Position numbers and translations under genes: made by a program. A stretch of 64,000 nt of DNA from an uncultured Mollicutes bacterium. Lineage in GTDB: Bacteria > Bacillota_I > Bacilli_A > RFN20 > CAG-826. The stretch is taken from positions 23,400 to 87,399 of the forward strand of contig URQK01000001.1 in assembly GCA_900549975.1 (NCBI GenBank), read 5' to 3'. This document shows positions 2,142 through 59,633 of the stretch, piece by piece (position 1 is the first letter of the stretch; each line of letters opens with the position of its first letter). The notes beneath the pieces were generated by a model. That model worked only from the letters and a program-made list of their open reading frames with translations, did no database searches and was not told the DNA's origin.

Positions 2142-4433
2142 ATGAAAAAAGGAAAATTGTTTTTGACTATTTTGGCTAGTATGGCTTTAGTTGCTTGTAA
2201 TGAACCAACTAGTACATCTGGTTCTACATCTAAACCATCTACTTCAGATTCAGTTTCCACATCTACTGTAGAGAAGTTTAATGTAGAAGTAGTTGGTGGT
2301 ACTGGCGGAGGCAATGACATTACTTCTGGTAGTAGTGTCACAGTTGTGGCAAATGAACCAGAAGAAGGAAAAAAATTTGTTAAATGGGTAGATGAAAATG
2401 GTAACACTGTTTCAACTGATAAGAGTTACACATTTACGGTATCAAAGAGCGTAAAACTCACTGCAACTTATGAAACATTAAAATTTCAAGTGACAATTAC
2501 TGATGGAACTGGCTCAGGTGAATATGAATATGGCGCTAGTGTGACTATTCAAGCTAGTGTAACAAAAGGAAAAGAATTTATTGCCTGGGTAGACGCAAGT
2601 GGAAAAGAAGTAAGTAAAGATAATCCATATACATTTGTAGTAAAAAGCGATGTTACTTTATTTGCAGAATTTAAAGAAGCATTTGTGGAACCGCAAAACA
2701 TAGATGATGTGAAATCTCTTCTTGCTAAATCCGCTAAAGCGCAAGTTAACACTGCGTCGATGACAAGTAAAGTAAAAACAACTGCTTATAATGCTAATAA
2801 TAATTATGCAGTAAAATCAGAGACTGAATATAACGAAACCGCTAATATGTATGCTGATAATATTATGTTTGCTACAGGTAAAAATTCTACTGGTGAATAT
2901 GAGAAGGCGTTAAAAATAGAAAATAATCAATTGCTTTCTGTACTTTATTATCCAAAAGCATTAAGTTATTATTCTTCTGCTGTTAAATATGATATTGTTG
3001 ATGAAGTAATTGATGAAGATGCTCAAGTTACTTTAGAAAATGCCCAAGCACAAGTGTTTGCTAATAATTTAGTTTCAACACTATTAGAATTATTTAATGA
3101 CTATAAATTAGAAAATGTTGATAGTGTGACTTGTACAAGTGATAGTAATGTTCATAATATATTAATAAATGCACATTATGCGCCATCAGGTTATGAAAGT
3201 ACAAAGTATTGTACTATTGAAATAAACATTGTATTAAATCAATATTTTATTAAATCAGCTTCAATCGTTGAAAAGGAATATGTTCGTGCAACTCAATTCG
3301 AAAATGGCGTATTAAAAGAAGACGCAAAATCACTTAATAAATATGAAACAACGTATATTTGTGATCAATTGTCAAGTGATAAAGCTAGCGCACCAGATAC
3401 AGTTGATATTAATAAATACTTTATTTCTAGTTTTGATTTTTCAGGAAAATATAGCGATGGTGTTAGTACAAAGTCAGATCGTAAATTTAACAAAGATAAT
3501 AATAAAATTGCATTAAATGCTGAAATTTCATCGTATTATTTAGACATGTCAAATGTGTTGCCTGCGACAAGCATTGAAAAAAACACTTTAACAATTAAAT
3601 CTGTCGGAGATGAAAACATCTTCAAAGTAACAAAAAATAGCAGTGGAAAAATTTCTAGTATTAAAGCAATTGCAGTAGGTAAAACAACTATTACAGTTTC
3701 TTCTGTTGCAGGATGTTTATCTTCATATGAAGTTGAAGTTGTTGAAAATTTAGCCCCAGTTTCATTTGAAGTTGATTGTTTAGATAAAGTATTAGTAGGT
3801 GAAGAAATTGAATTAAATGTTAAAAATATAAGACCAGATACTTCTAATAAAAATGTTACATGGTCAGTTAATAATGCTGATATGGCAGAAATAGTAAATA
3901 AAGATGGTAAATTCTTCTTAAAAGGAAAAGGAGATAAAGCTGGATTTGTAACTATTACTGCTACGTCCAATAGTGATAATAGTGTTTCTGCTAGTAAAGA
4001 TGTCTTTATTTCTCAAGGAGCATTGTCACAAGATGCTTTACGTGAAGCCGTTAAGGGAACTTGGGTTAAAATGAGCTATTTTGGAACTTCTATCGAATTT
4101 ACTTTTAGTTTTAATGATGACGGAACATTCACCGCTGTTGACAATGTAAGAAAGTATAACAAAATAACCGGAAATGGTAATTGGGAAGTTTCAACTGATA
4201 AAGATTCTAGCATAGAAGACAATTTCTCTTCATATGGACATACAAATGTAGATGATTACTTAGTTGTTAAAATTACCAATTACACTTTAACTGATGAATC
4301 TGCTAATGGGTCGACAATTGAAATTCACTTTGCAATTGCTCCTGAAGGCTATGAAATGTATTATCACTTTAGAATTGGCTCAGGATCATTAAGTTCTGTA
4401 TCAACTATAGAAGGCAAAGTAATTAAACAATAA
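2142..4433 (+). CDS. Large surface lipoprotein with two tandem Listeria-Bacteroides-type (InlB B-repeat-like) domains and a Big_2-like Ig domain
   Basis: RBS AGGAG precedes ATG 2142. Signal peptide carries lipobox LVAC, followed by an S/T-rich linker. Two ~65-aa repeats (FNVEVVGG...KFVKWVDENGN...YTFTV...LTATYE and FQVTITDG...EFIAWVDASGK...YTFVV...LFAEFKE) are present. A Big_2-like segment lies around aa 490-560. Confidence 0.7.
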   Translation: MKKGKLFLTILASMALVACNEPTSTSGSTSKPSTSDSVSTSTVEKFNVEVVGGTGGGNDITSGSSVTVVANEPEEGKKFVKWVDENGNTVSTDKSYTFTVSKSVKLTATYETLKFQVTITDGTGSGEYEYGASVTIQASVTKGKEFIAWVDASGKEVSKDNPYTFVVKSDVTLFAEFKEAFVEPQNIDDVKSLLAKSAKAQVNTASMTSKVKTTAYNANNNYAVKSETEYNETANMYADNIMFATGKNSTGEYEKALKIENNQLLSVLYYPKALSYYSSAVKYDIVDEVIDEDAQVTLENAQAQVFANNLVSTLLELFNDYKLENVDSVTCTSDSNVHNILINAHYAPSGYESTKYCTIEINIVLNQYFIKSASIVEKEYVRATQFENGVLKEDAKSLNKYETTYICDQLSSDKASAPDTVDINKYFISSFDFSGKYSDGVSTKSDRKFNKDNNKIALNAEISSYYLDMSNVLPATSIEKNTLTIKSVGDENIFKVTKNSSGKISSIKAIAVGKTTITVSSVAGCLSSYEVEVVENLAPVSFEVDCLDKVLVGEEIELNVKNIRPDTSNKNVTWSVNNADMAEIVNKDGKFFLKGKGDKAGFVTITATSNSDNSVSASKDVFISQGALSQDALREAVKGTWVKMSYFGTSIEFTFSFNDDGTFTAVDNVRKYNKITGNGNWEVSTDKDSSIEDNFSSYGHTNVDDYLVVKITNYTLTDESANGSTIEIHFAIAPEGYEMYYHFRIGSGSLSSVSTIEGKVIKQ

Positions 4434-4453
4434 ATTAGGGAGTAAGAGGTTAT

Positions 4454-6166
4454 ATGAATAAAAAAATATTAATGTTAACATCAGCTCTAACTATCGGTGT
4501 GTTAGTGGCTTCATGTGGTAAAATTGAAAATTCATCAAATTCGAATTCATCATCTACAAGTGGGGGAACAAGTATCCCTAATACATCAGTGGATATTAAA
4601 AATGATGGAACAGTCGATTTAAATACTGCTCAATTATTAATAAATGGAGCAAAAGATAAAGATATCGATAATGCTAAAAAGAGTATTGTAACAACAGTTG
4701 CTATTGGCTATGATTCTGGAAGAAGATATCAACAAAGTAGCCGTTTAGAATCAACATCATATAAAGATGATTTAACAATTGGCACAGGAACAATTGAACA
4801 CTTTTTCTATGATAATCAAGATAATGTTTTAAAAGACACATTTGATGAAGTCTATACAATAAAATCAAATAATTATATTTATATGCGTAAATATAAGAAT
4901 GGCATATTTGTTGACCAAACAGAAAAGAAAAGTCTTTTAAACTCAACTGATCCAGTGGAATTAGAATACAACTACGCTACTGCGCGTGCTGAAGTATCAT
5001 GTGGAGCAGGATTAGATGCATATATCCAATTCTTTAATGCTCTTGTTGAAGCAGGCGGACAATGTTTATATGGTTCAGCAACAGATAAAGTAACAAACAA
5101 TGTTACATTATATTTCCAAACATCTTACGAAAGTACAGATACAAATCAATTAAGATTATCGACATTTGTATTCCAATTTGATAGTGCTAGAAATGGATTT
5201 TTACAAACATTTGATTCAACACAAAGTCTTTATAGTTTAGATATTTATAATGCTGCTGAAGATAAGAGTCAAATTCAACCAACGTATTATAGCAAACAAT
5301 TATTTGTCGTTGAAAAAGGTACACTTACTGATTTCACAGGTGAATTACCAGTTGATTTAGATAGTGCATTTGTTCAACAAATTAATGTTGCATCACCAAA
5401 AACAATAATTACAGTCGGTGAAACTATTGCTATCACATGGGAAGTTTTACCAACAACAGCATTAAACAAAACAGTAGTGCTTTCTAGTAAAAACGAAAAT
5501 GTAGCACGTGTTGATGAAGATGGTCGTGTTACAGGAATTAGTAAAGGCAAAGCAGTAATTTCTGTTTTAAATCCTGAAAGTGGAGTTGAAGGTACAATTG
5601 AAATAGAAGTTGTTGATAAGAGTCAAGGAGATGCCGGTGACGATTCTAAAAAAGGACCATTAAAAGCAGCATTGCAAGAAGCATTCTACCAATTATTTAA
5701 ATTTGATTCTATGTTCCATGGTGATTCCATTTTAGGAATGTGCCTAAGTTCAGATATTCAATTAAACGCTAAGAAACTTAGTGCTTTAACAATTTCGGAA
5801 TTTGCATATGATGAAAATTTACGTAAAGCAACATATGTTGGAGATTTGAGTAAGTTAATTGATATTCTTCCTTTTGAAGATAATGGAAACGCTAATGTAT
5901 CTAATGATTACTTACAAAAGCAGTTTAGTATATATCATGACAATGTCCTTGGATTAGAAGTATATCTAAAAGGGGACAATACAATAAGTTATATTAGATT
6001 TACAATGAGAACAGATAGCGCAAGTATGAGATCAGCAGAATTTGCAACATTAACTAACGAAAACGTACAAGAAGTAATGGGACAAAAGAGTGACTTCAAA
6101 GTAGGTTACGAACGCAAAGTAGTGTTTGAAAGCGCTGGATTCTCTTACCCAGATGACAATGAATAA
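4454..6166 (+). CDS. Surface lipoprotein with a Big_2-like domain
   Basis: RBS GGGAG precedes the start. Lipobox LVASC, then an S/N-rich linker. Ig-like segment ITVGETIAITWEVLPT...VARVDEDGRVTGISKGKAVISV. Confidence 0.7.
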   Translation: MNKKILMLTSALTIGVLVASCGKIENSSNSNSSSTSGGTSIPNTSVDIKNDGTVDLNTAQLLINGAKDKDIDNAKKSIVTTVAIGYDSGRRYQQSSRLESTSYKDDLTIGTGTIEHFFYDNQDNVLKDTFDEVYTIKSNNYIYMRKYKNGIFVDQTEKKSLLNSTDPVELEYNYATARAEVSCGAGLDAYIQFFNALVEAGGQCLYGSATDKVTNNVTLYFQTSYESTDTNQLRLSTFVFQFDSARNGFLQTFDSTQSLYSLDIYNAAEDKSQIQPTYYSKQLFVVEKGTLTDFTGELPVDLDSAFVQQINVASPKTIITVGETIAITWEVLPTTALNKTVVLSSKNENVARVDEDGRVTGISKGKAVISVLNPESGVEGTIEIEVVDKSQGDAGDDSKKGPLKAALQEAFYQLFKFDSMFHGDSILGMCLSSDIQLNAKKLSALTISEFAYDENLRKATYVGDLSKLIDILPFEDNGNANVSNDYLQKQFSIYHDNVLGLEVYLKGDNTISYIRFTMRTDSASMRSAEFATLTNENVQEVMGQKSDFKVGYERKVVFESAGFSYPDDNE

Positions 6167-42751: not shown

Positions 42752-42773
42752 TTGAGCGGTGGGAGGAAAAATT

Positions 42774-43319
42774 ATGGCAAGTGAAAAACAATGGTATGTT
42801 GTTAATACTTATTCTGGTCACGAAGACAAGGTTAAAGTAAATCTTGAAAGACGTGTTGTTTCTATGGGACTTGAAGACTATGTTTTCAGAATCATAGTTG
42901 CTGAAACTGAACAACCAGTTTTAAAAGATGGTGTTCCAACTGGAAAAACAAAAATCAAAAACTCTTATCCAGGCTATGTTTTTATTGAAATGATAATGAG
43001 TGACGAAGCATGGTTCATGGTTAGAAACACACCAGGAGTTACTGGATTCGTTGGATCATCCGGTGGAGGTACTAAACCTTTCCCAATTCCAACAGAAGAA
43101 ATTGAACCAGTTCTTAAAGGATTAGGTATGGTTGATAAGAGTATGTACTCACGTTACGACGTCGGTGATTTAGTAAAAGTTTTACGTGGACCACTTGAAG
43201 GTAGTGAAGGTCATATTACTGAAATTAATACCGACACTGGCACTGTAAAAGTTGAAACTGTATTCTTTGGTCGTTCAACGGTTGTTGAAGTTGATTTTTC
43301 TGAAATAGATAAAATTTAA
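42774..43319 (+). CDS. nusG: Transcription termination/antitermination factor NusG
   Basis: NGN domain WYVVNTYSGHE and KOW domain. GGGAGG RBS precedes ATG 42774. Confidence 0.93.
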   Translation: MASEKQWYVVNTYSGHEDKVKVNLERRVVSMGLEDYVFRIIVAETEQPVLKDGVPTGKTKIKNSYPGYVFIEMIMSDEAWFMVRNTPGVTGFVGSSGGGTKPFPIPTEEIEPVLKGLGMVDKSMYSRYDVGDLVKVLRGPLEGSEGHITEINTDTGTVKVETVFFGRSTVVEVDFSEIDKI

Positions 43320-43345: not shown

Positions 43346-43398
43346 ATCCTTTCGAGTTTAGTTTTATTCCAAACTAACTATATCGAAAGGATTTTTTA
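43346..43398 (+). terminator. Terminator after nusG
   Basis: ATCCTTTCGA ... TCGAAAGGAT stem followed by TTTTTT. Confidence 0.6.
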
Positions 43399-43463
43399 TT
43401 TGAATTATAAAACAGCACTTTTAAAGTTTAAAGTGCTATTTAAATTATTTTGTTCTCAGTTGA

Positions 43464-43529
43464 GAAAAACTATTTCTTAGTTTTAGAAAGCACTTTATTC
43501 TTGAGAAGATAGTTTTTTCAATTTATAAT
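43464..43529 (+). promoter_or_regulatory. Promoter (TTGAGA, 17 nt, TATAAT) of the inserted lipoprotein gene, overlapped by the inverted repeat GAAAAACTAT / ATAGTTTTTT
   Basis: The IR arms are at 43464-43473 and 43509-43518. The right arm lies in the promoter spacer. A second near-palindrome, AGCACTTTTAAA-G-TTTAAAGTGCT, lies at 43414-43437. Confidence 0.45.
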
Positions 43530-43554
43530 ACTTTTTTCGAAAGAGAGGTAAATT

Positions 43555-45612
43555 ATGAGAAAAAAATTATTTTGTCTATTAAGTGTTTCTTGTTTATTAG
43601 CACTCGGTGCTTGTAATCAAGGAGGATCATCTACGTCTAATAGTGGCGCATCTACTCAACCTTCAACAAGTTTGAAAGAACGTTACAACTGTATTGACAT
43701 AAGTGAAGCATTAGAAATTGCTTCTAAAGCTAGTGAGCCAACACAAGAAAGATATTATCTTTATGGCAAAATTACTAGTGTTTCCAATTATGATTATGGA
43801 AGCATGGAAATTGAAGATGGAACTGGTAAGATTTATATTTATGGAACGTATAGTGAAGATGGAAGTATCCAGTACAAAAATTTAGAATATAAGCCAGATG
43901 TAAATGATGAAATTGTTGTTTATGCTACTCTTCAAACTCATAGTGGACAACCAGAAGTAAAAAATGCATGGTTAATTGATTATGTCGATAGTAATACACA
44001 ATTTGATGTTAGCGAATATGAAAAAATGACTATTACTAAAGCTAGAGAAGCGAAAAAAGGCAAAAAAGTTTTGGTGTCAGGTGTTGTAAGTAAAAAAACA
44101 TATGCGACAGGAAAGAAAGAAAACGGCTTTTATCTTGTTGATAATACATCTTCTATTTATATTTACGATTCATCGACTGTATTAAAAGTAAAAGAAGGTA
44201 ATGCTATTACTTTAGCGGCAACAAAAGACTACTGGATTTTAGAAGATGAAGTGCCTTTTGCTGAAAAGTATGGTTACAATGGCTCATGCCAATTAACCAA
44301 AGGACATATTATTAGTAATGATGAAGGTAGAAATGATATTGATACAAGCTGGGTTGAAGAAACAACTATAAAACAAATTATGGACACTCCAGTTACTGAA
44401 AATATTACAAATAAAATTTTTAAAGCAAATGCCTATATAGCTAAATCTCAAAAAGAAGGATATGTTAACTATTATATTGATGATTTAGATGAAACTACAG
44501 GATCTTATGTTTATACACAATGTAATGGCAGTGATTTGAATTGGCTTGAGAAATTTGATGGGAAGATTTGTACAGTGTTGGTTGTGGCAATCAATGCTAA
44601 ATCTACAATATCAGGATGTTCTTGGAGATTTATTCCAATTTCTGTTAAAGACGAAGGATTTACTTTTGATAAGGCTAATGTCGGACAATTCGTATATGAT
44701 TATAAAGTTAAAACCTTGTTTAAAGATGTGTATACAGGCGATCCAAAAGTAATGGTTCCAGTAACTGCTTCTTCATCACTTTTAGGTTTTGCAAACGCAA
44801 GTATTAGTTATTCTTCTAGCAATGAAAAAGTTGCGTATTTTAGCGAAGATGAAGGTGTTTTAACATTTCATACTAATGAAGTAGGCAATGCTACGATAAC
44901 AGTTAAAATTAATTACGAAAATAATGCGACATTTGTTAAAACATTTAATGTATCAGTTACTTTGCCAAAAGTTACAGAATCTATAACAGTTAAAGAAGCT
45001 ATTGATAGTGAACTTAACTCTGTTGTAACTGTTAAAGGTATTGCTGGTCCATCATTAGTGAATAAAGTAGGATTTTATTTGATTGATGAAAGTGGCGCAA
45101 TCGCGATTACGACATCTTCAGAAACTATTAGTTCTATTAGTTTAGGAAATGAAGTAATATTAAAGGGAACGCGTTCGCAATTAGGAGTTGTTCAAGATAA
45201 ATCAGTTGGCGAAATTTTTCTTGATAACTGTGAATTAGTGTCAAATTTGTATGGAAAACATGATTACTCAACCGCATCATTTGATGGTAGTAAAACTTTA
45301 GCGGATTTAGCTAAAATTAAAGCGACGGAAAATGCTACAGCACAAGTATATGTATTTGAGGGAACTTTTGAAAAAGTTGTACAACCCAAGTACTCTAATA
45401 TGTATGTTAAAAATGGTGATACAAAAATCCGTTTATATTGTTCAAATGCTGCTCAATATGAATGGTTGGATGAGTTTGAAAATCAAACTGTCACCATTGA
45501 AATGGCTCTATGCAACTGGAATGGTAAAACTTATTACACTGGTTGTGTATTATCAGTCACAGCAAACGGTGTAAAAACCATGAACACTCTTGTTTATAGC
45601 CAAAACAATTAG
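43555..45612 (+). CDS. Surface lipoprotein with repeated OB-fold-like (BOF/tRNA_anti-like) modules and a Big_2-like domain
   Basis: Lipobox LGAC. Three OB-like segments of type YLYGKITSV...GSMEIEDGTGKIYIYG, VLVSGVVSKK...GFYLVDNTSSIYIYD and VVTVKGIAGPSLVNKVGFYLIDESGAIAITT. An Ig-like segment lies around aa 400-470. Confidence 0.6.
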   Translation: MRKKLFCLLSVSCLLALGACNQGGSSTSNSGASTQPSTSLKERYNCIDISEALEIASKASEPTQERYYLYGKITSVSNYDYGSMEIEDGTGKIYIYGTYSEDGSIQYKNLEYKPDVNDEIVVYATLQTHSGQPEVKNAWLIDYVDSNTQFDVSEYEKMTITKAREAKKGKKVLVSGVVSKKTYATGKKENGFYLVDNTSSIYIYDSSTVLKVKEGNAITLAATKDYWILEDEVPFAEKYGYNGSCQLTKGHIISNDEGRNDIDTSWVEETTIKQIMDTPVTENITNKIFKANAYIAKSQKEGYVNYYIDDLDETTGSYVYTQCNGSDLNWLEKFDGKICTVLVVAINAKSTISGCSWRFIPISVKDEGFTFDKANVGQFVYDYKVKTLFKDVYTGDPKVMVPVTASSSLLGFANASISYSSSNEKVAYFSEDEGVLTFHTNEVGNATITVKINYENNATFVKTFNVSVTLPKVTESITVKEAIDSELNSVVTVKGIAGPSLVNKVGFYLIDESGAIAITTSSETISSISLGNEVILKGTRSQLGVVQDKSVGEIFLDNCELVSNLYGKHDYSTASFDGSKTLADLAKIKATENATAQVYVFEGTFEKVVQPKYSNMYVKNGDTKIRLYCSNAAQYEWLDEFENQTVTIEMALCNWNGKTYYTGCVLSVTANGVKTMNTLVYSQNN

Positions 45613-45622
45613 TAAAAAACAG

Positions 45623-45656
45623 GCCACATTACTGCTGAACAAATGTGGCTTTTTTT
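45623..45656 (+). terminator. Terminator after the inserted lipoprotein gene
   Basis: GCCACATT ... AATGTGGC stem followed by TTTTTTT. Confidence 0.7.
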
Positions 45657-45687
45657 GTGTTTTCAAGACAAGTTATTAAAAAAAATC

Positions 45688-45716
45688 TTGCATTGCAAAA
45701 TGCGATTAGATATAAT
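45688..45716 (+). promoter_or_regulatory. Promoter of rplK-rplA (TTGCAT, 17 nt, TATAAT) with a ~110-nt leader
   Basis: Near-consensus hexamers. Confidence 0.55.
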
Positions 45717-45828: not shown

Positions 45829-46242
45829 GTGAGTAAAAAGATCGCTAAGGTAGTAAAATTGGAGTTACCTGGTGGAGAAGCTAAACCAGGACCAAAACTT
45901 GCAACTGCTGGTATTGTTATGCCTAAATTCTGTACAGACTTTAACGCAAAAACAGCTGACCGTAAAGGTGAAGTAGTTCCAGTTATTATTACAGCCTACG
46001 AAGACAAATCGTTTGACTTCGTAATCAAAACTTCACCAGTAGCAGGTTTGTTATTAAAAGCTGCTGGAATTAAAAAAGGTTCAGCAAATGCTAAGACAAC
46101 AAAAGTTGGTAAAGTTAGCAAAGAAGAATTAAGAAAGATTGCTGAATACAAAATGCCAGATCTTAATTGTAACGATGTTGAAGCAGCAATGAAAGTAGTT
46201 GCTGGACAAGCTCGTAACATGGGCATTGAAATTGACGAATAA
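45829..46242 (+). CDS. rplK: 50S ribosomal protein L11 (GTG start)
   Basis: Conserved L11. AAGGAGG RBS. Confidence 0.93.
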   Translation: MSKKIAKVVKLELPGGEAKPGPKLATAGIVMPKFCTDFNAKTADRKGEVVPVIITAYEDKSFDFVIKTSPVAGLLLKAAGIKKGSANAKTTKVGKVSKEELRKIAEYKMPDLNCNDVEAAMKVVAGQARNMGIEIDE

Positions 46243-46979: not shown

Positions 46980-47151
46980 TTAAAGTTAGGAATTCAATAT
47001 ACCCAAGACAGTAACGACGCTATAGTTTAAAAATGTTACCGAGGTGTAGGATAATTTAATAAAAAACTTATTCTCTCGCTTTTTCGCGAGTAACTTCAAT
47101 GTATATTGAAACCTCATAAAAATTTTGAAGAAAGGTTAGGAGGTTAGAACT
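46980..47151 (+). promoter_or_regulatory. Putative L10 (rplJ) leader / autoregulatory 5' UTR
   Basis: A 170-nt untranslated gap between rplA and rplJ, as in Firmicutes L10 leaders. Contains the TCTCGC-TTTTT-GCGAGT hairpin. Confidence 0.4.
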
Positions 47152-56353: not shown

Positions 56354-58027
56354 ATGAAAAAACTATTAAAAAGTTTATTTGCACTTGCTATAGTGGCCAC
56401 AACAGCCTTTTCATTAACTGCTTGTGGAGGACCAAGTAGAGTAAAAAGATCAACTTTTGTAAACTCTTTGTCGCAAGTTCGTAAAAGTAGAGGATATAAA
56501 GCTGATTTACCATCAACTGGTAAACAAAAAGTATTAGTTATTCCTGTTCAATTTAGTGATTACCCATGTAGTTCTACTAAATTAGCTAAATATGGTGGCT
56601 GTACTGGCTTAAGAGATGATATTAGAAAAACTATGTTTGGAAAATCCGAAGAAACAAACTGGGAATCTTTATCATCATTCTATAAAAAATCAAGTTATGG
56701 AAAACTAAATATTACTGGTAAAGTTACTGATTGGTTTACACCAGAGTTATCTGCTCACCAATACGCTTTACAAATGGAAGGGAATAATACAGGTATTTCT
56801 GATAGAATTCTAGACGAAGCTGTTGAATGGTATAAGAGCAAATATAATGATATCGATAGTTTTGATCAAAACAAAGATGGATATATTGATTCAGTTTATT
56901 TAATTTATACAGTACCAAAAAGATCACAAATTTTACCAACAAGCACAGGTATTGATACAACTGATTTATTCTGGGCTTATACATATTGGTCAAATTCACA
57001 TACTGACATTAATCTTGATACTGATAAAGATATATTACCAGTAGCATCGACATACTTCTGGGCAAGCGTCGACTTTATGTATGAAGATAAAATGCTTAAA
57101 GATGGAAAATATGTTGAATGTAAAGATAAAAATGGTGACTGGTTACCAGATGCTCACACATTCATTCATGAATCTGGTCATATTATGGGATTACCTGACT
57201 ATTACACTTATGGTCCACAAAATGGTATTGATGACTATGGTGCATTAGGTGGAATTGATATGATGGATAATAACGTCGGTGATCATAATGCATATTCTAA
57301 AATGATTTATGGTTGGACAGAACCATATGTTGTAAGTAATGAAACTGTCAAAGGTGATTCAACAACACTTACAATTAAGCCATTCTATTCTTCAGGTGAC
57401 TTCATTCTTGTTAATGCTAATTGGGATGGATCAATGTTTAGTGAGTATTTATTATTAGAATACTATCAACCAGAAGGGGTAAATAAGTATGATGCAGAGC
57501 ATCAATTTGCCGGTTCTTACCCACAAGTATTCCAACAACCTGGTGTTAAGGTATATCATGTTGACTCACGTTTAGCTGGTTTTGACCTTGTAAGCGGTAA
57601 TGTTACAGTTGCTAGTAGTGGTATTTTCGTTGATTTTATTGATGAAATTTCAAATAGATTCTCATATTGTTATATTGCTAATGATAACTCAATTACAAGA
57701 AGTGCAATTCCTGACTATAAATTAATCGAATTGTTGGAACCATCTGGCGAATGTTCATTTAAACAAAAGAATGACAAAGGACAATATATTACTCCTTACG
57801 CTACAGATGCGTCATTATTCCATGAAGGCGATTCTTTTGGCTATGAAGGTAAAGCTTACGCTGACTATAAATTACATACAGGACAAAATATTATTACTGT
57901 AGATGGTGTTCCAACTGTTGATAAAAATGGATACGAAGGCGACGAGTTAGGTTTTAAATTTGTAATTGAAAAAATGGATAAAAATGGTGTAACCATTAAA
58001 TTCGAAAAAACCGCAAGCGCATATTAA
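56354..58027 (+). CDS. M6/immune-inhibitor-A-like HExxH zinc metalloprotease lipoprotein
   Basis: Lipobox LTAC. N-terminal VLVIPVQFSDYPCS and HESGHIMGLPDYY zinc motif. GGIDMMDNN block follows. Confidence 0.65.
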   Translation: MKKLLKSLFALAIVATTAFSLTACGGPSRVKRSTFVNSLSQVRKSRGYKADLPSTGKQKVLVIPVQFSDYPCSSTKLAKYGGCTGLRDDIRKTMFGKSEETNWESLSSFYKKSSYGKLNITGKVTDWFTPELSAHQYALQMEGNNTGISDRILDEAVEWYKSKYNDIDSFDQNKDGYIDSVYLIYTVPKRSQILPTSTGIDTTDLFWAYTYWSNSHTDINLDTDKDILPVASTYFWASVDFMYEDKMLKDGKYVECKDKNGDWLPDAHTFIHESGHIMGLPDYYTYGPQNGIDDYGALGGIDMMDNNVGDHNAYSKMIYGWTEPYVVSNETVKGDSTTLTIKPFYSSGDFILVNANWDGSMFSEYLLLEYYQPEGVNKYDAEHQFAGSYPQVFQQPGVKVYHVDSRLAGFDLVSGNVTVASSGIFVDFIDEISNRFSYCYIANDNSITRSAIPDYKLIELLEPSGECSFKQKNDKGQYITPYATDASLFHEGDSFGYEGKAYADYKLHTGQNIITVDGVPTVDKNGYEGDELGFKFVIEKMDKNGVTIKFEKTASAY

Positions 58028-58042
58028 TATTTATTTACTAAA

Positions 58043-58076
58043 AACTATATCATTTAAAATGATATGGTTTTTTTTG
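58043..58076 (+). terminator. Terminator between the two paralogous protease genes
   Basis: AACTATATCAT-TTAAA-ATGATATGGTT hairpin followed by TTTTTTTT. Confidence 0.55.
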
Positions 58077-58124
58077 TTCTTTAATTATGCTAAACTTATT
58101 TCAACGAAAGGTAAGAAGACGTTA

Positions 58125-59633
58125 ATGAAAAAAAAGAATTTTTTAATTTTAGGATTAGTATTATTTTTATCAGGATGCAGTGCGTCTTCTTTATCAACGT
58201 TTAATAGTTATACTAAAGATAAAGATGATTATAGGGAAATACAAACGAATGGTTATTATAAACCTTCTGAATATAATTTAAGTTATCAAGAAATACTTCA
58301 AGATTATCCATATTCAAGTAGTGAAAAGAATATTACGATACCTTCTACGGGAGAAAGACAGTTGCTAGTTATTCCAGTGGATTTTACTGATTATAGTTGT
58401 TCAGTATTAAATGGTGGTTGCAAAAAGGCTAAAAATAAGATTCACAATGTGTTTTTTGGCGTTGACAATGTTAATGCTTTCAACTCAGTAACATCATATT
58501 TTAATAGTTCTAGTTTTGGCAAATTACATTTACGCGGTGAAGTAATGGACTGGTATCATAGTGAATATTCTACAAGTGATTTAATTGATAATAAAATGCT
58601 TGTAAATAATATCGCAAAATCGGCAATTAAATATTATAAAGACCAAGGAGTGGACTTATCTAAATTTAATACTGATGGCGATAAATATATTGATGGAATT
58701 GCTTTTGTTTATTCAGCACGTTATCAAAAAAAAGATACAGCATTATGGGCATATCAATCTGCAGTGACGTCTTATTCTTCAGAAGAATTTAAAGAAGATA
58801 ATCTAGCTAGAACTTATTTATGGGCGAGTTATTATTATATGAATAGTGATGATGACTTTGCAAAAGTCGATGCTCATACTTATATCCATGAGACAGGTCA
58901 TTTATTAGGATTAAGTGACTATTATTCTCAAGATGCCACACAGTTATTTAAGCCAATGGGTGGTATGGATATGATGGACTATAATTTAGGCGATGAAAAC
59001 ACATTCTCTAAAATGCTTTTAAATTGGACAAGGCCTTATGTTATTAAAGATGAAACCACTATAACTATTAATGCTTCTTATAAAAATGGAGATTGTATTT
59101 TAGTGCCTGCAAAATCATGGAATGGATCGGCAATGGATGAATATCTATTAATTGAACTATATTCTCCTAAAGGATTAAATGCTCATGATAGCAAAGTAGA
59201 GTACACTACAGGAGATAAGAATTTTTCTTTAATGACTAAACCAGGCATTAAAATAATGCATGTAGACGCACGTATTGGACATTATATGACATTTAATCAA
59301 AATCCTTTTATCGGTTATGATGGTGATGAAGGAGTAGAAGAAACGCTGAAAAAATATGATTCTTCTGGGCAAAGACATTATCGCAAACTAGCCCATTCTA
59401 ATACTTTATCTTACTCAGAAGACAAAATACCTTTGGTTTGCATTGTAGATAAGCATGGTGATAATTATTTAAAGCAAGGTAATTTACTCACTAATGATAG
59501 CCTTTATGTCGAAGGGGATGTTTTTAAAAAAGACTTCACATTTAATAATGGTGCTAAATTAGAATATAACATTAGAATTGATAAATTGAGTTCTTATAAA
59601 GTAACATTAACATTCGCTAAAAAAATTAAATAA
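58125..59633 (+). CDS. Second M6-like HExxH metalloprotease lipoprotein (paralogue of the upstream gene)
   Basis: Start MKKKNFLILGLVLFLSGC (lipobox LSGC). The ORF-track start at 58059 lies inside the upstream terminator. Motifs LLVIPVDFTDYSCS and HETGHLLGLSDYY, then GGMDMMDYN. Confidence 0.65.
   Translation: MKKKNFLILGLVLFLSGCSASSLSTFNSYTKDKDDYREIQTNGYYKPSEYNLSYQEILQDYPYSSSEKNITIPSTGERQLLVIPVDFTDYSCSVLNGGCKKAKNKIHNVFFGVDNVNAFNSVTSYFNSSSFGKLHLRGEVMDWYHSEYSTSDLIDNKMLVNNIAKSAIKYYKDQGVDLSKFNTDGDKYIDGIAFVYSARYQKKDTALWAYQSAVTSYSSEEFKEDNLARTYLWASYYYMNSDDDFAKVDAHTYIHETGHLLGLSDYYSQDATQLFKPMGGMDMMDYNLGDENTFSKMLLNWTRPYVIKDETTITINASYKNGDCILVPAKSWNGSAMDEYLLIELYSPKGLNAHDSKVEYTTGDKNFSLMTKPGIKIMHVDARIGHYMTFNQNPFIGYDGDEGVEETLKKYDSSGQRHYRKLAHSNTLSYSEDKIPLVCIVDKHGDNYLKQGNLLTNDSLYVEGDVFKKDFTFNNGAKLEYNIRIDKLSSYKVTLTFAKKIK

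Follow-up and report, generated by a model that had tools for sequence, protein, structure and literature searches.

What is a surface lipoprotein gene doing between nusG and rplK, how did it come to be there, and what might its product bind? These questions are raised by 64,000 nucleotides (nt) of DNA from an uncultured human-gut Bacilli/Mollicutes-like bacterium (GenBank assembly GCA_900549975.1, contig URQK01000001.1, positions 23,400 to 87,399), hereafter the window, whose numbering is used throughout. An open reading frame (ORF) at 43555..45612 on the plus strand encodes a lipoprotein of 685 amino acids (aa). It is a monocistronic accessory gene that fits precisely between the terminator of nusG and the promoter of rplK. 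Contigs identical to this one are deposited as ENA ERZ28596242 and in NCBI GCA_900753675.1. Its product is a tethered, catalytically inert array of OB folds on the cell surface. A preliminary description, made from the letters alone, had proposed a 2.3-kb unit with its own promoter, flanking terminators and this lipoprotein, and all of these were located in the sequence. The best overall explanation, in which an accessory gene was relocated within the genome, is expressed constitutively and serves polymer capture, is one in which we place about as much belief as doubt.

The architecture of the protein was read from an AlphaFold2 model built on an alignment of 35 sequences, with a predicted local-distance difference test (pLDDT) score of 88 for the whole protein and 91 for the third OB fold alone. 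A tether and six globular units follow the signal peptide:

43555..43614, plus strand: signal peptide with lipobox LALGA/C, aa 1-20, Cys20 invariant
43615..43671, plus strand: disordered tether rich in Ser/Thr/Asn/Gln, aa 21-39, pLDDT <50, 19% identity across the family
43672..43992, plus strand: OB fold 1 (OB1), aa 40-146, the best match to PF01336
44002..44328, plus strand: OB fold 2 (OB2), aa 150-258, from AlphaFold2 and from hhalign (95.6% probability to OB1, 97.9% to OB4)
44347..44658, plus strand: OB fold 3 (OB3), aa 265-368, the most conserved domain, from Foldseek
44659..44964, plus strand: helix and Ig-like beta sandwich, aa 369-470, from the model and from aBig_2 in 6/35 relatives
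44974..45258, plus strand: OB fold 4 (OB4), aa 474-568, paralogue of OB2
45277..45609, plus strand: OB fold 5 (OB5), aa 575-685, paralogue of OB3

The N-terminus (MRKKLFCLLSVSCLLALGAC, read as MRKK-LFCLLSVSCLLA-LGA-C20) has a positive n-region, a hydrophobic h-region and a lipobox of the form [LVI][ASTVIG][GAS]C, the Cys of which is invariant in 35/35 of the family members aligned. Neither lgt nor lspA is among the genes of the window. The OB domains take the form of five-stranded closed beta barrels with a capping helix between strands 3 and 4, as judged from AlphaFold2 and Foldseek. When the full model was compared with the PDB by Foldseek, the matches were HIN-200 (E 1.6e-8), RPA70 (7e-8), RADX, Teb1 and the LysRS anticodon-binding domain; with OB3 alone, 50/50 of the best matches were OB folds, at template-modelling (TM) scores of 0.45-0.56. 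Sub-alignments compared by hhalign joined OB3 to OB5 (97.7% probability) and OB1 to OB5 (91.4%), in addition to the links listed for OB2. All the domains being connected by such profile-profile links, the protein consists of five homologous OB folds in the order OB1, [OB2-OB3], Ig-like, [OB4-OB5], with OB4-OB5 an internal duplication of OB2-OB3. Remote homology and structure prediction, the checks proposed in the preliminary description, have thus upheld its OB folds and corrected their number, which it had put at three. BLAST detected neither paralogues in the window nor internal repeats, the latter being visible only by profile-profile comparison. PF01336 scores the window protein at 19.4 bits (E 0.001, aa 71-136), short of the Pfam gathering cutoff of 27, and is found in 32/35 full-length relatives at E<=0.01 (best 1.9e-12), while BOF is found in 9/35.

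The same description had also named a Big_2 domain. PF02368 gave no match on the window protein at E<=1; the AlphaFold2 model places a 7-strand sandwich at aa 399-468, and the relatives with aBig_2 carry PF20578. An Ig-like domain is therefore predicted, and it is not demonstrably Big_2. A HIN-like architecture was likewise considered; the fold matches, but full-model TM scores of 0.2-0.45 led us not to apply the HIN-domain label.

OB and Ig domains account for the whole length of the protein. No catalytic domain (SNase, EEP/DNase I-like or beta-beta-alpha-Me nuclease) was found in the window protein, in its 35 relatives or in 11 longer relatives. The longer relatives are mostly longer OB arrays, hold only OB, Ig, repeat and CBM26 domains and one 5'-nucleotidase-C domain, and show no consistent enzymatic partner. 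Conservation is concentrated in OB3, where mean identity is 62% against 42-51% elsewhere, with 42 near-invariant positions and a conserved pair, Cys323 and Cys339. A near-invariant segment at aa 305-325 (window 44467-44530) reads NYYxDDxD..TGSYxYTQCNG; together with the Cys pair it may represent a Ca2+-binding loop and a disulfide, marking a functional site.

The family is large, unnamed and entirely unannotated. At least 2,219 matches were obtained in a 90%-identity database, and a library of 50%-identity clusters yielded 3,741 clusters at E<=1e-3, 611 of them at E<1e-30. Its members occur in metagenome-assembled genomes of gut Bacilli and Clostridia, relatives being labelled Mollicutes, Anaeroplasmataceae or Bacilli. 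Several NCBI titles of family-bearing, low-GC, Bacilli-type loci (L011-L090) are implausible, including 'Escherichia coli', 'Bacteroides uniformis', 'Faecalibacterium prausnitzii' and 'Alistipes communis' (H076xx 'cleanbin' isolates), and these records are probably mislabelled bins. Six metagenome-assembled genomes labelled Clostridia (L028, L035, L042, L048, L060 and L064; clusters c46/c52, e.g. L060:2887-3579) have OB-repeat lipoproteins of another, unrelated family (PF01336, 31.9 bits) beside the substrate-binding protein (SBP)-permease-permease genes that adjoin the lipoprotein gene.

The ratio of nonsynonymous to synonymous substitution (dN/dS) is 0.11-0.18 for the lipoprotein gene and 0-0.09 for its neighbours. 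The gene is therefore functional and under purifying selection, less strict than that on its neighbours. Part of a sister lineage whose lipoprotein is about 92% identical carries an in-frame TGA at codon 24 (GGA to TGA; L007:3752-5809, L008:3752-5809 and L009:487-2544; P0002-P0006). This lies four codons past the lipobox Cys; the reading frame is undamaged over its other 661 codons, and the alleles bearing the TGA differ by just 3 synonymous changes. The codon may reflect recent inactivation or tolerated read-through.

What such an array would hold at the cell surface is the central functional question. Our preferred answer, offered tentatively and with somewhat less than even confidence, is an extracellular polymer, most likely RNA or DNA. 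Once captured by the tethered array, the polymer would be digested by secreted nucleases that are products of separate genes (a barnase-type RNase or an SNase lipoprotein), and the fragments would enter the cell through an ABC importer. Every sequence homology (PF01336, BOF) and every structural match is to the nucleic-acid-binding OB superfamily. In 9/77 loci, in two arrangements, the gene adjoins barstar and a gene for a secreted RNase lipoprotein of the barnase family (PF00545, 51.7 bits). The gene lies within a UgpCAE-like importer block in 13-14 loci, the importer of the window genome is followed by an SNase lipoprotein, and one distant relative combines this type of OB fold with a 5'-nucleotidase domain. 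The Pfam content of 132 immediate neighbours (RDD 10, ABC permease 6, barstar 3, thymidine kinase 2, Xan_ur_permease 2, others scattered) shows an enrichment that is suggestive only.

Comparison with known systems places the protein near the surface nucleases. In YhcR-type enzymes the OB modules are believed to retain nucleic acid on the outside of the cell (PMC4118848). B. subtilis YhcR, S. pyogenes SpnA, S. sanguinis SWAN and S. gordonii SsnA are likewise extracytoplasmic and cell-anchored and use the PF01336/cd04486 OB family, and YhcR has a 5'-nucleotidase domain, as does the distant relative mentioned above. They differ in that one to three OB folds are fused to a catalytic EEP or SNase/5'-nucleotidase domain behind an LPXTG anchor, whereas the lipoprotein, anchored through a lipobox, lacks a catalytic domain and is made of five OB folds and an Ig-like domain. 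An operon of mycoplasmas comprising an SNase lipoprotein, a sugar-type ABC transporter and a P80/P68 binding lipoprotein has been proposed to import nucleic-acid (nucleotide) precursors, its putative substrate (PMC3585158). These operons (MAG_5030-5070, mhp379, MPN133) resemble the window genome, where a UgpC/A/E-like ABC transporter, a P68-like lipoprotein and an SNase lipoprotein stand in a row, and orthologues of the OB lipoprotein lie inside the counterpart block in 13-14 genomes; no OB-array lipoprotein has been described in the mycoplasma operons, however, and the OB gene of the window is 18 kb from the block.

Other resemblances are more distant. RPA70, the HIN-200 proteins (AIM2/IFI16/p204), RADX and Teb1, the best whole-model structural matches (Foldseek E 1.6e-8 to ~1e-4), share tandem OB pairs with the lipoprotein, but at 9-19% sequence identity, TM 0.2-0.45 and a different relative orientation of domains. 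These eukaryotic binders are intracellular and have basic grooves, whereas the lipoprotein family is acidic, so that the likeness holds at the level of the fold only. BOF/YgiW proteins (PF04076; PDB 3f1z, a 'putative nucleic acid-binding lipoprotein') are also secreted bacterial OB folds, and 3f1z is among the structural matches of OB3; they are, however, single-domain periplasmic stress proteins of ~110 aa and the likeness is weak (E 0.4, TM ~0.5). The S. aureus matrix lipoproteins and C. difficile CD1687 are lipid-anchored surface proteins reported to bind extracellular DNA (PMC6593408, PMC10175255). Their role is in the biofilm matrix and not in nutrient capture, and no kinship of sequence or fold is to be expected.

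Several observations weigh against capture of nucleic acid. The family is acidic (isoelectric point, pI, 4.2-5.1, median 4.5), as are four of the five OB domains (pI <5.4), which is unusual for binders of a polyanion. The importer of the block is of the sugar (CUT1) type, and a relative of 3738 aa combines the same type of OB fold with three CBM26 starch-binding modules. Most gene neighbourhoods are uninformative, the association with an RNase comes down to only about two independent arrangements, and a PDB sequence search with the family profile returned nothing significant, leaving no close PDB relative.

An alternative is that the ligand is a glycan. An OB array rich in conserved Tyr/Trp/Asp/Asn would then bind an oligo- or polysaccharide and feed the adjacent CUT1-type ABC importer, paralleling the surface glycan-binding proteins of polysaccharide-utilisation loci. 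In favour of this, besides the acidity and the CBM26 modules, the neighbouring importer is UgpCAE/MalFGK-like with SBP_bac_1 binding proteins, the gene stands in 6 loci beside a divergent SBP-permease-permease set and a weakly GH79-like protein, and the conserved OB3 segment has many Asp, Asn and Tyr residues. No glycoside hydrolase is consistently linked to the gene, however; the homology and structural matches are to nucleic-acid-binding OB folds throughout and to neither sugar-binding OB toxins nor CBMs, and RNase/barstar and SNase genes are among the neighbours. We consider glycan capture unlikely, if deserving of attention.

A role as an adhesin or coat protein, with the OB and Ig modules forming a rigid stalk or a scaffold for binding protein or host and no part in nutrient capture, appears to us quite improbable. 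The protein is indeed modular, beta-rich and tethered at the surface, its relatives add InlB B-repeats, PT repeats or longer OB arrays, the window encodes other surface proteins with Big_2 and InlB repeats, and the rate of evolution of the gene is higher than that of its neighbours. Its dN/dS, however, shows no diversifying selection, the conservation of OB3 suggests a specific, conserved ligand more than a stalk, and importer and nuclease genes recur in the neighbourhood of the gene. Capture of RNA or DNA remains our preferred reading.

How the gene came to its present position can be approached through the unit and its borders, the features of which, in order along the plus strand, are as follows:

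42774..43319, plus strand: nusG, 181 aa from ATG, Pfam NusG and KOW
43346..43398, plus strand: nusG intrinsic terminator, ATCCTTTCGA..TCGAAAGGAT with an inner GTTTAGTTT/AAACTAAC stem, then TTTTTT; hairpin 43346-43392
43414..43437, plus strand: near-palindrome AGCACTTTTAAAGTTTAAAGTGCT, 8-bp stem and 8-nt loop, not conserved
43464..43473, plus strand: left arm of an inverted repeat, GAAAAACTAT, 9 nt perfectly complementary to the right arm
43486..43500, plus strand: upstream element AGAAAGCACTTTATT, 15 nt abutting the -35 box, from allele alignments
43501..43529, plus strand: sigma-70-type promoter of the lipoprotein gene, -35 TTGAGA, 17-nt spacer with ATAGTTTTTT (43509-43518), -10 TATAAT
43530..43554, plus strand: 5' untranslated region (UTR), 25 nt, ribosome-binding site AGAGAGG at 43542-43548, without a structured leader
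45621..45658, plus strand: intrinsic terminator of the lipoprotein gene, GGCCACATT..AATGTGGC and TTTTTTT
45688..45716, plus strand: rplK promoter, TTGCAT-17-TATAAT, right-hand border of the insertion, aligned with the empty-site relative L096
45717..45828, plus strand: rplK leader, structured and conserved, present with or without the insertion
45829..46242, plus strand: rplK (L11), called gene

An alternative GTG start of nusG at 42759 would give 186 aa. Metagenome contigs were scanned with NusG, and a close relative, L096 (NusG 92% and L11 93% identical), was found to have an empty gap of 239 nt (L096:912-1151) containing a terminator, an AT-rich stretch, the rplK promoter and its leader. 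From about 45688, where the rplK promoter begins in the window, the two sequences can be aligned onward. The nusG terminator differs at the same position in L096 and in the 92%-identity sister lineage; the terminator of the lipoprotein gene is kept in L010 and L095 and is absent at the empty site. Alleles of the lipoprotein gene occupy the same position in L093-L095 (94.9-99.6% identical lipoprotein) and in the ~92% sister lineage L007-L010. The lipoprotein gene is a true lineage-specific insertion. The independently transcribed insertion that had been proposed is supported by this comparison, which also answers the question, put at the time, of whether nusG directly adjoins rplK in relatives. 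The preliminary description had named universal presence of the gene and non-conservation of its inverted repeats as what would count against it; the first is not the case, L096 being empty, and the second is, as described below.

Other relatives carry other cargo. Those with ~71% identical NusG have trkA/trkH on the opposite (minus) strand in the same gap (L103:2754-5243, L104, L109, L110:6534-9013, L111, L114 and L118), and further relatives have nusG-rplK gaps of 773-1497 nt. As the gap holds different cargo across relatives, the secE-nusG/rplKA boundary is a permissive site in this clade and the nusG-rplK gap a recurrent site of insertion. Among 80 GTDB species-representative loci, none has nusG or rplK within 10 kb of the homologue. 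The insertion itself is an ordinary rearrangement.

The closest homologues outside the species include a group (group 1) with 48-50% identity in 13-14 genomes, all in one conserved block: rpsL-rpsG-fusA-tuf, an RDD gene, a small divergent ORF, the lipoprotein gene, two RDD genes, an ABC ATPase and two permeases (a UgpC/A/E-like importer) and two substrate-binding lipoproteins (SBPs). The window genome keeps a counterpart of this block ~18 kb downstream of the lipoprotein gene, just past the window end (L091:13716-22079). There, tuf is followed by LysM on the minus strand, two RDD genes, a UgpC/A/E-like ABC ATPase with two permeases, a 543-aa P68-like binding lipoprotein and an SNase lipoprotein, a mycoplasma-like nuclease/importer cluster from which the OB lipoprotein gene is missing. 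Identities between the two blocks are 65% for the ATPase, 42-47% for the permeases, 26% for the binding protein and 26-28% for the RDD proteins. These bracket the ~50% of the OB lipoprotein, which fits vertical descent, and this pattern, together with the absence of the gene from the retained block, leads us to infer intragenomic relocation. The likeliest history would be a move from the tuf block to the nusG-rplK gap after the split from the L096 lineage, the sister species with the empty gap. It counts against this history that loss followed by re-acquisition may have had the same outcome.

The move would have had a regulatory cost. Directly upstream of the lipoprotein gene, group-1 orthologues have a promoter and a conserved leader of ~130 nt, which contains, in order, a GGAAG/CTTCC hairpin, an invariant GACACCCCCGTT, a CGTTCC/GGAATG hairpin, an A-rich GAAAAATTAAAACGTTT and GGTGTTTTTT. 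The two hairpins covary, five base pairs showing compensatory changes. The loci are:

L003:5868-6003, L004:5868-6003, L011:1789-1925, L013:1553-1688, L014:9865-10003 and L016:9862-10003: leader upstream of orthologues
L017:9871-10003, L019:2424-2568, L021:9861-10003, L024:9649-9781 and L029:9868-10003: leader upstream of orthologues, as above
L012:9858-10004 and L065:9860-9965: weak matches from other genomic contexts

A covariance model of this leader matched only directly upstream of members of this lipoprotein gene family and gave no match in the window; the small divergent ORF that adjoins the orthologues likewise has no homologue there. The leader has no Rfam match and is a candidate new attenuator or riboswitch-like element. 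Since it is present on the orthologues and not in the window, the relocated copy has, on this evidence, lost its ancestral cis-regulatory leader, ~130 nt of structured RNA, and has a plain, strong promoter.

Acquisition from another organism, possibly on a mobile element and with independent loss of the copy at the tuf site, would also place the gene in the gap, and the lineage-specific cargo (empty, trkAH or the lipoprotein gene) and the mere 57% identity of the nearest homologue outside the species could be read in this way. No integrase, transposase or recombinase gene lies near the lipoprotein gene, however; the insert is not flanked by direct repeats (no shared word exceeds 7 nt, a length reached in 482/500 shuffles); the insert shows no compositional anomaly (GC 0.31-0.32, as in its surroundings); and the ~50% identity to the group-1 orthologues falls between the values for the ATPase and the permeases. 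We regard such an origin as improbable, and relocation within the genome as the better account.

In its present position the gene would be transcribed from a near-consensus sigma-70 promoter (TTGAGA-17-TATAAT, 11/12 consensus positions) with a short UTR, insulated by terminators on both sides. Both hexamers are kept across the alleles and in the 92% lineage; the sequence of the spacer is not. All bases of AGAAAGCACTTTATT but the last, where the AGCACTTTATT run ends in C or A, are invariant in every aligned allele, that lineage included, and this is possibly an UP-like promoter element. Such a promoter suggests that the gene is probably expressed constitutively.

The preliminary description had instead proposed repressor control through inverted repeats. 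The repeats do lie where it placed them, AAAAACTAT (43465-43473) and ATAGTTTTT (43509-43517) being 35 nt apart with the second arm within the promoter spacer; the 10-nt arms it described match at only nine of ten positions. Dinucleotide shuffles of the 235-nt spacer gave a perfect inverted repeat of >=9 nt in 28% of cases and of >=10 nt in 11%, which puts the repeats within the range of chance. Folding of the intergenic region does exceed that of shuffles (z = -4.7), an excess due to the terminator hairpins.

The alleles were compared at two tiers. Among those with 94.9-99.6% identical protein, both elements change one-sidedly, without compensation. The palindrome is the most variable part of the spacer among same-species alleles, reading AGCCCTTT../..AAAATGCT in L093 and ACCGC-TTC../..AAAACGCT in L095, with non-compensatory changes in L094 as well. 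The spacer repeat is broken in L094, where it reads ACAGTTTT, one-sided changes being present in both L094 and L095. At the second tier, the spacer dyad is absent in L010, L007 and L008 and the palindrome in L010; this 92% lineage lacks the upstream 100 nt, reads GTCATAATCT in the promoter spacer and has retained only the two promoter hexamers, the 15 nt that precede the -35 box and the 5' UTR. The neighbours of the lipoprotein gene are nusG and rplK, and no regulator gene stands beside it.

On the shuffle statistics and the two tiers of comparison the operator hypothesis was rejected. That a repressor binds the GAAAAACTAT/ATAGTTTTTT repeat, the palindrome at 43414-43437 or both is scarcely credible, despite the existence of the repeats, the arm in the promoter spacer and the folding excess, given repeats of chance length, terminators that account for the excess, uncompensated decay among near-identical alleles, loss of both elements at 92% identity with -35, -10 and UTR retained, and the lack of an adjacent regulator. 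The repeats look like chance and do not appear to be an operator, and the palindrome is probably a decaying second hairpin.

Downstream of the unit, the rplK leader is conserved in L096, and where the first hairpins of the two differ the changes compensate each other (CATAGGGCTAG..CTAAGCTATG against CATGGAATTG..CAATTCTAAGCTTTG). No Rfam family matched this leader at E<=1; it is probably an autoregulatory leader of the L1 or L11 type. An Rfam scan of the region found nothing around the lipoprotein gene and only an L10 leader (RF00557) downstream, at 46984-47108 upstream of rplJ, with 43.3 bits against a gathering score of 44.

Elsewhere in the window, rpoC and rpsL are separated by two paralogous genes for M6 (immune inhibitor A-like) peptidases at 56354-59633, a further case of accessory genes inserted between core operons. 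The region 2142-6166 encodes two large proteins, putatively of the surface, with InlB B-repeat and Big_2 domains; the likeness of the first to the lipoprotein is limited to the signal-peptide region. The sole tRNA in the window is Ala-CGC. Among 56 ORFs of >=120 aa at 1-64000, 42 end in TAA, 14 in TAG and none in TGA, and 8 further genes in L091:12179-21650 also lack TGA stops; in relatives overall, 20% of ORFs end in TGA. The 18,177 codons include no in-frame TGA, although the triplet is frequent in the other frames, and a code with TAA and TAG as its sole stops lengthens none of the genes. Reassignment of TGA to sense was rejected for the window on these grounds. The avoidance of TGA could reflect highly expressed genes and AT bias, or an RF2-poor or UGA-unassigned state.

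In the broadest terms the lipoprotein is a new, nuclease-free variant of known surface OB-fold proteins, and its interest comes mainly from the large uncharacterised family to which it belongs. A more ambitious proposal, which we consider less likely than not, is that the family forms an unrecognised class of nuclease-free, five-OB surface receptors, in effect RPA-like proteins outside the cell, that capture RNA or DNA for reduced-genome gut Bacilli and hand it over to secreted RNases or SNases and a UgpCAE-like importer, the ancestral locus being under the control of an undescribed structured leader RNA that was lost from the window copy. Should the ligand prove to be a glycan, the family would instead represent a novel type of OB array that binds carbohydrate. 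Uncultured Mollicutes-like gut Bacilli of the RF39/Anaeroplasmataceae type, whose genomes are small, are presumed to rely on scavenging for their precursors. A large family built of OB folds only, found beside importers and secreted nucleases, offers a concrete and testable candidate for the first step of such scavenging, the capture of polymer at the cell surface.

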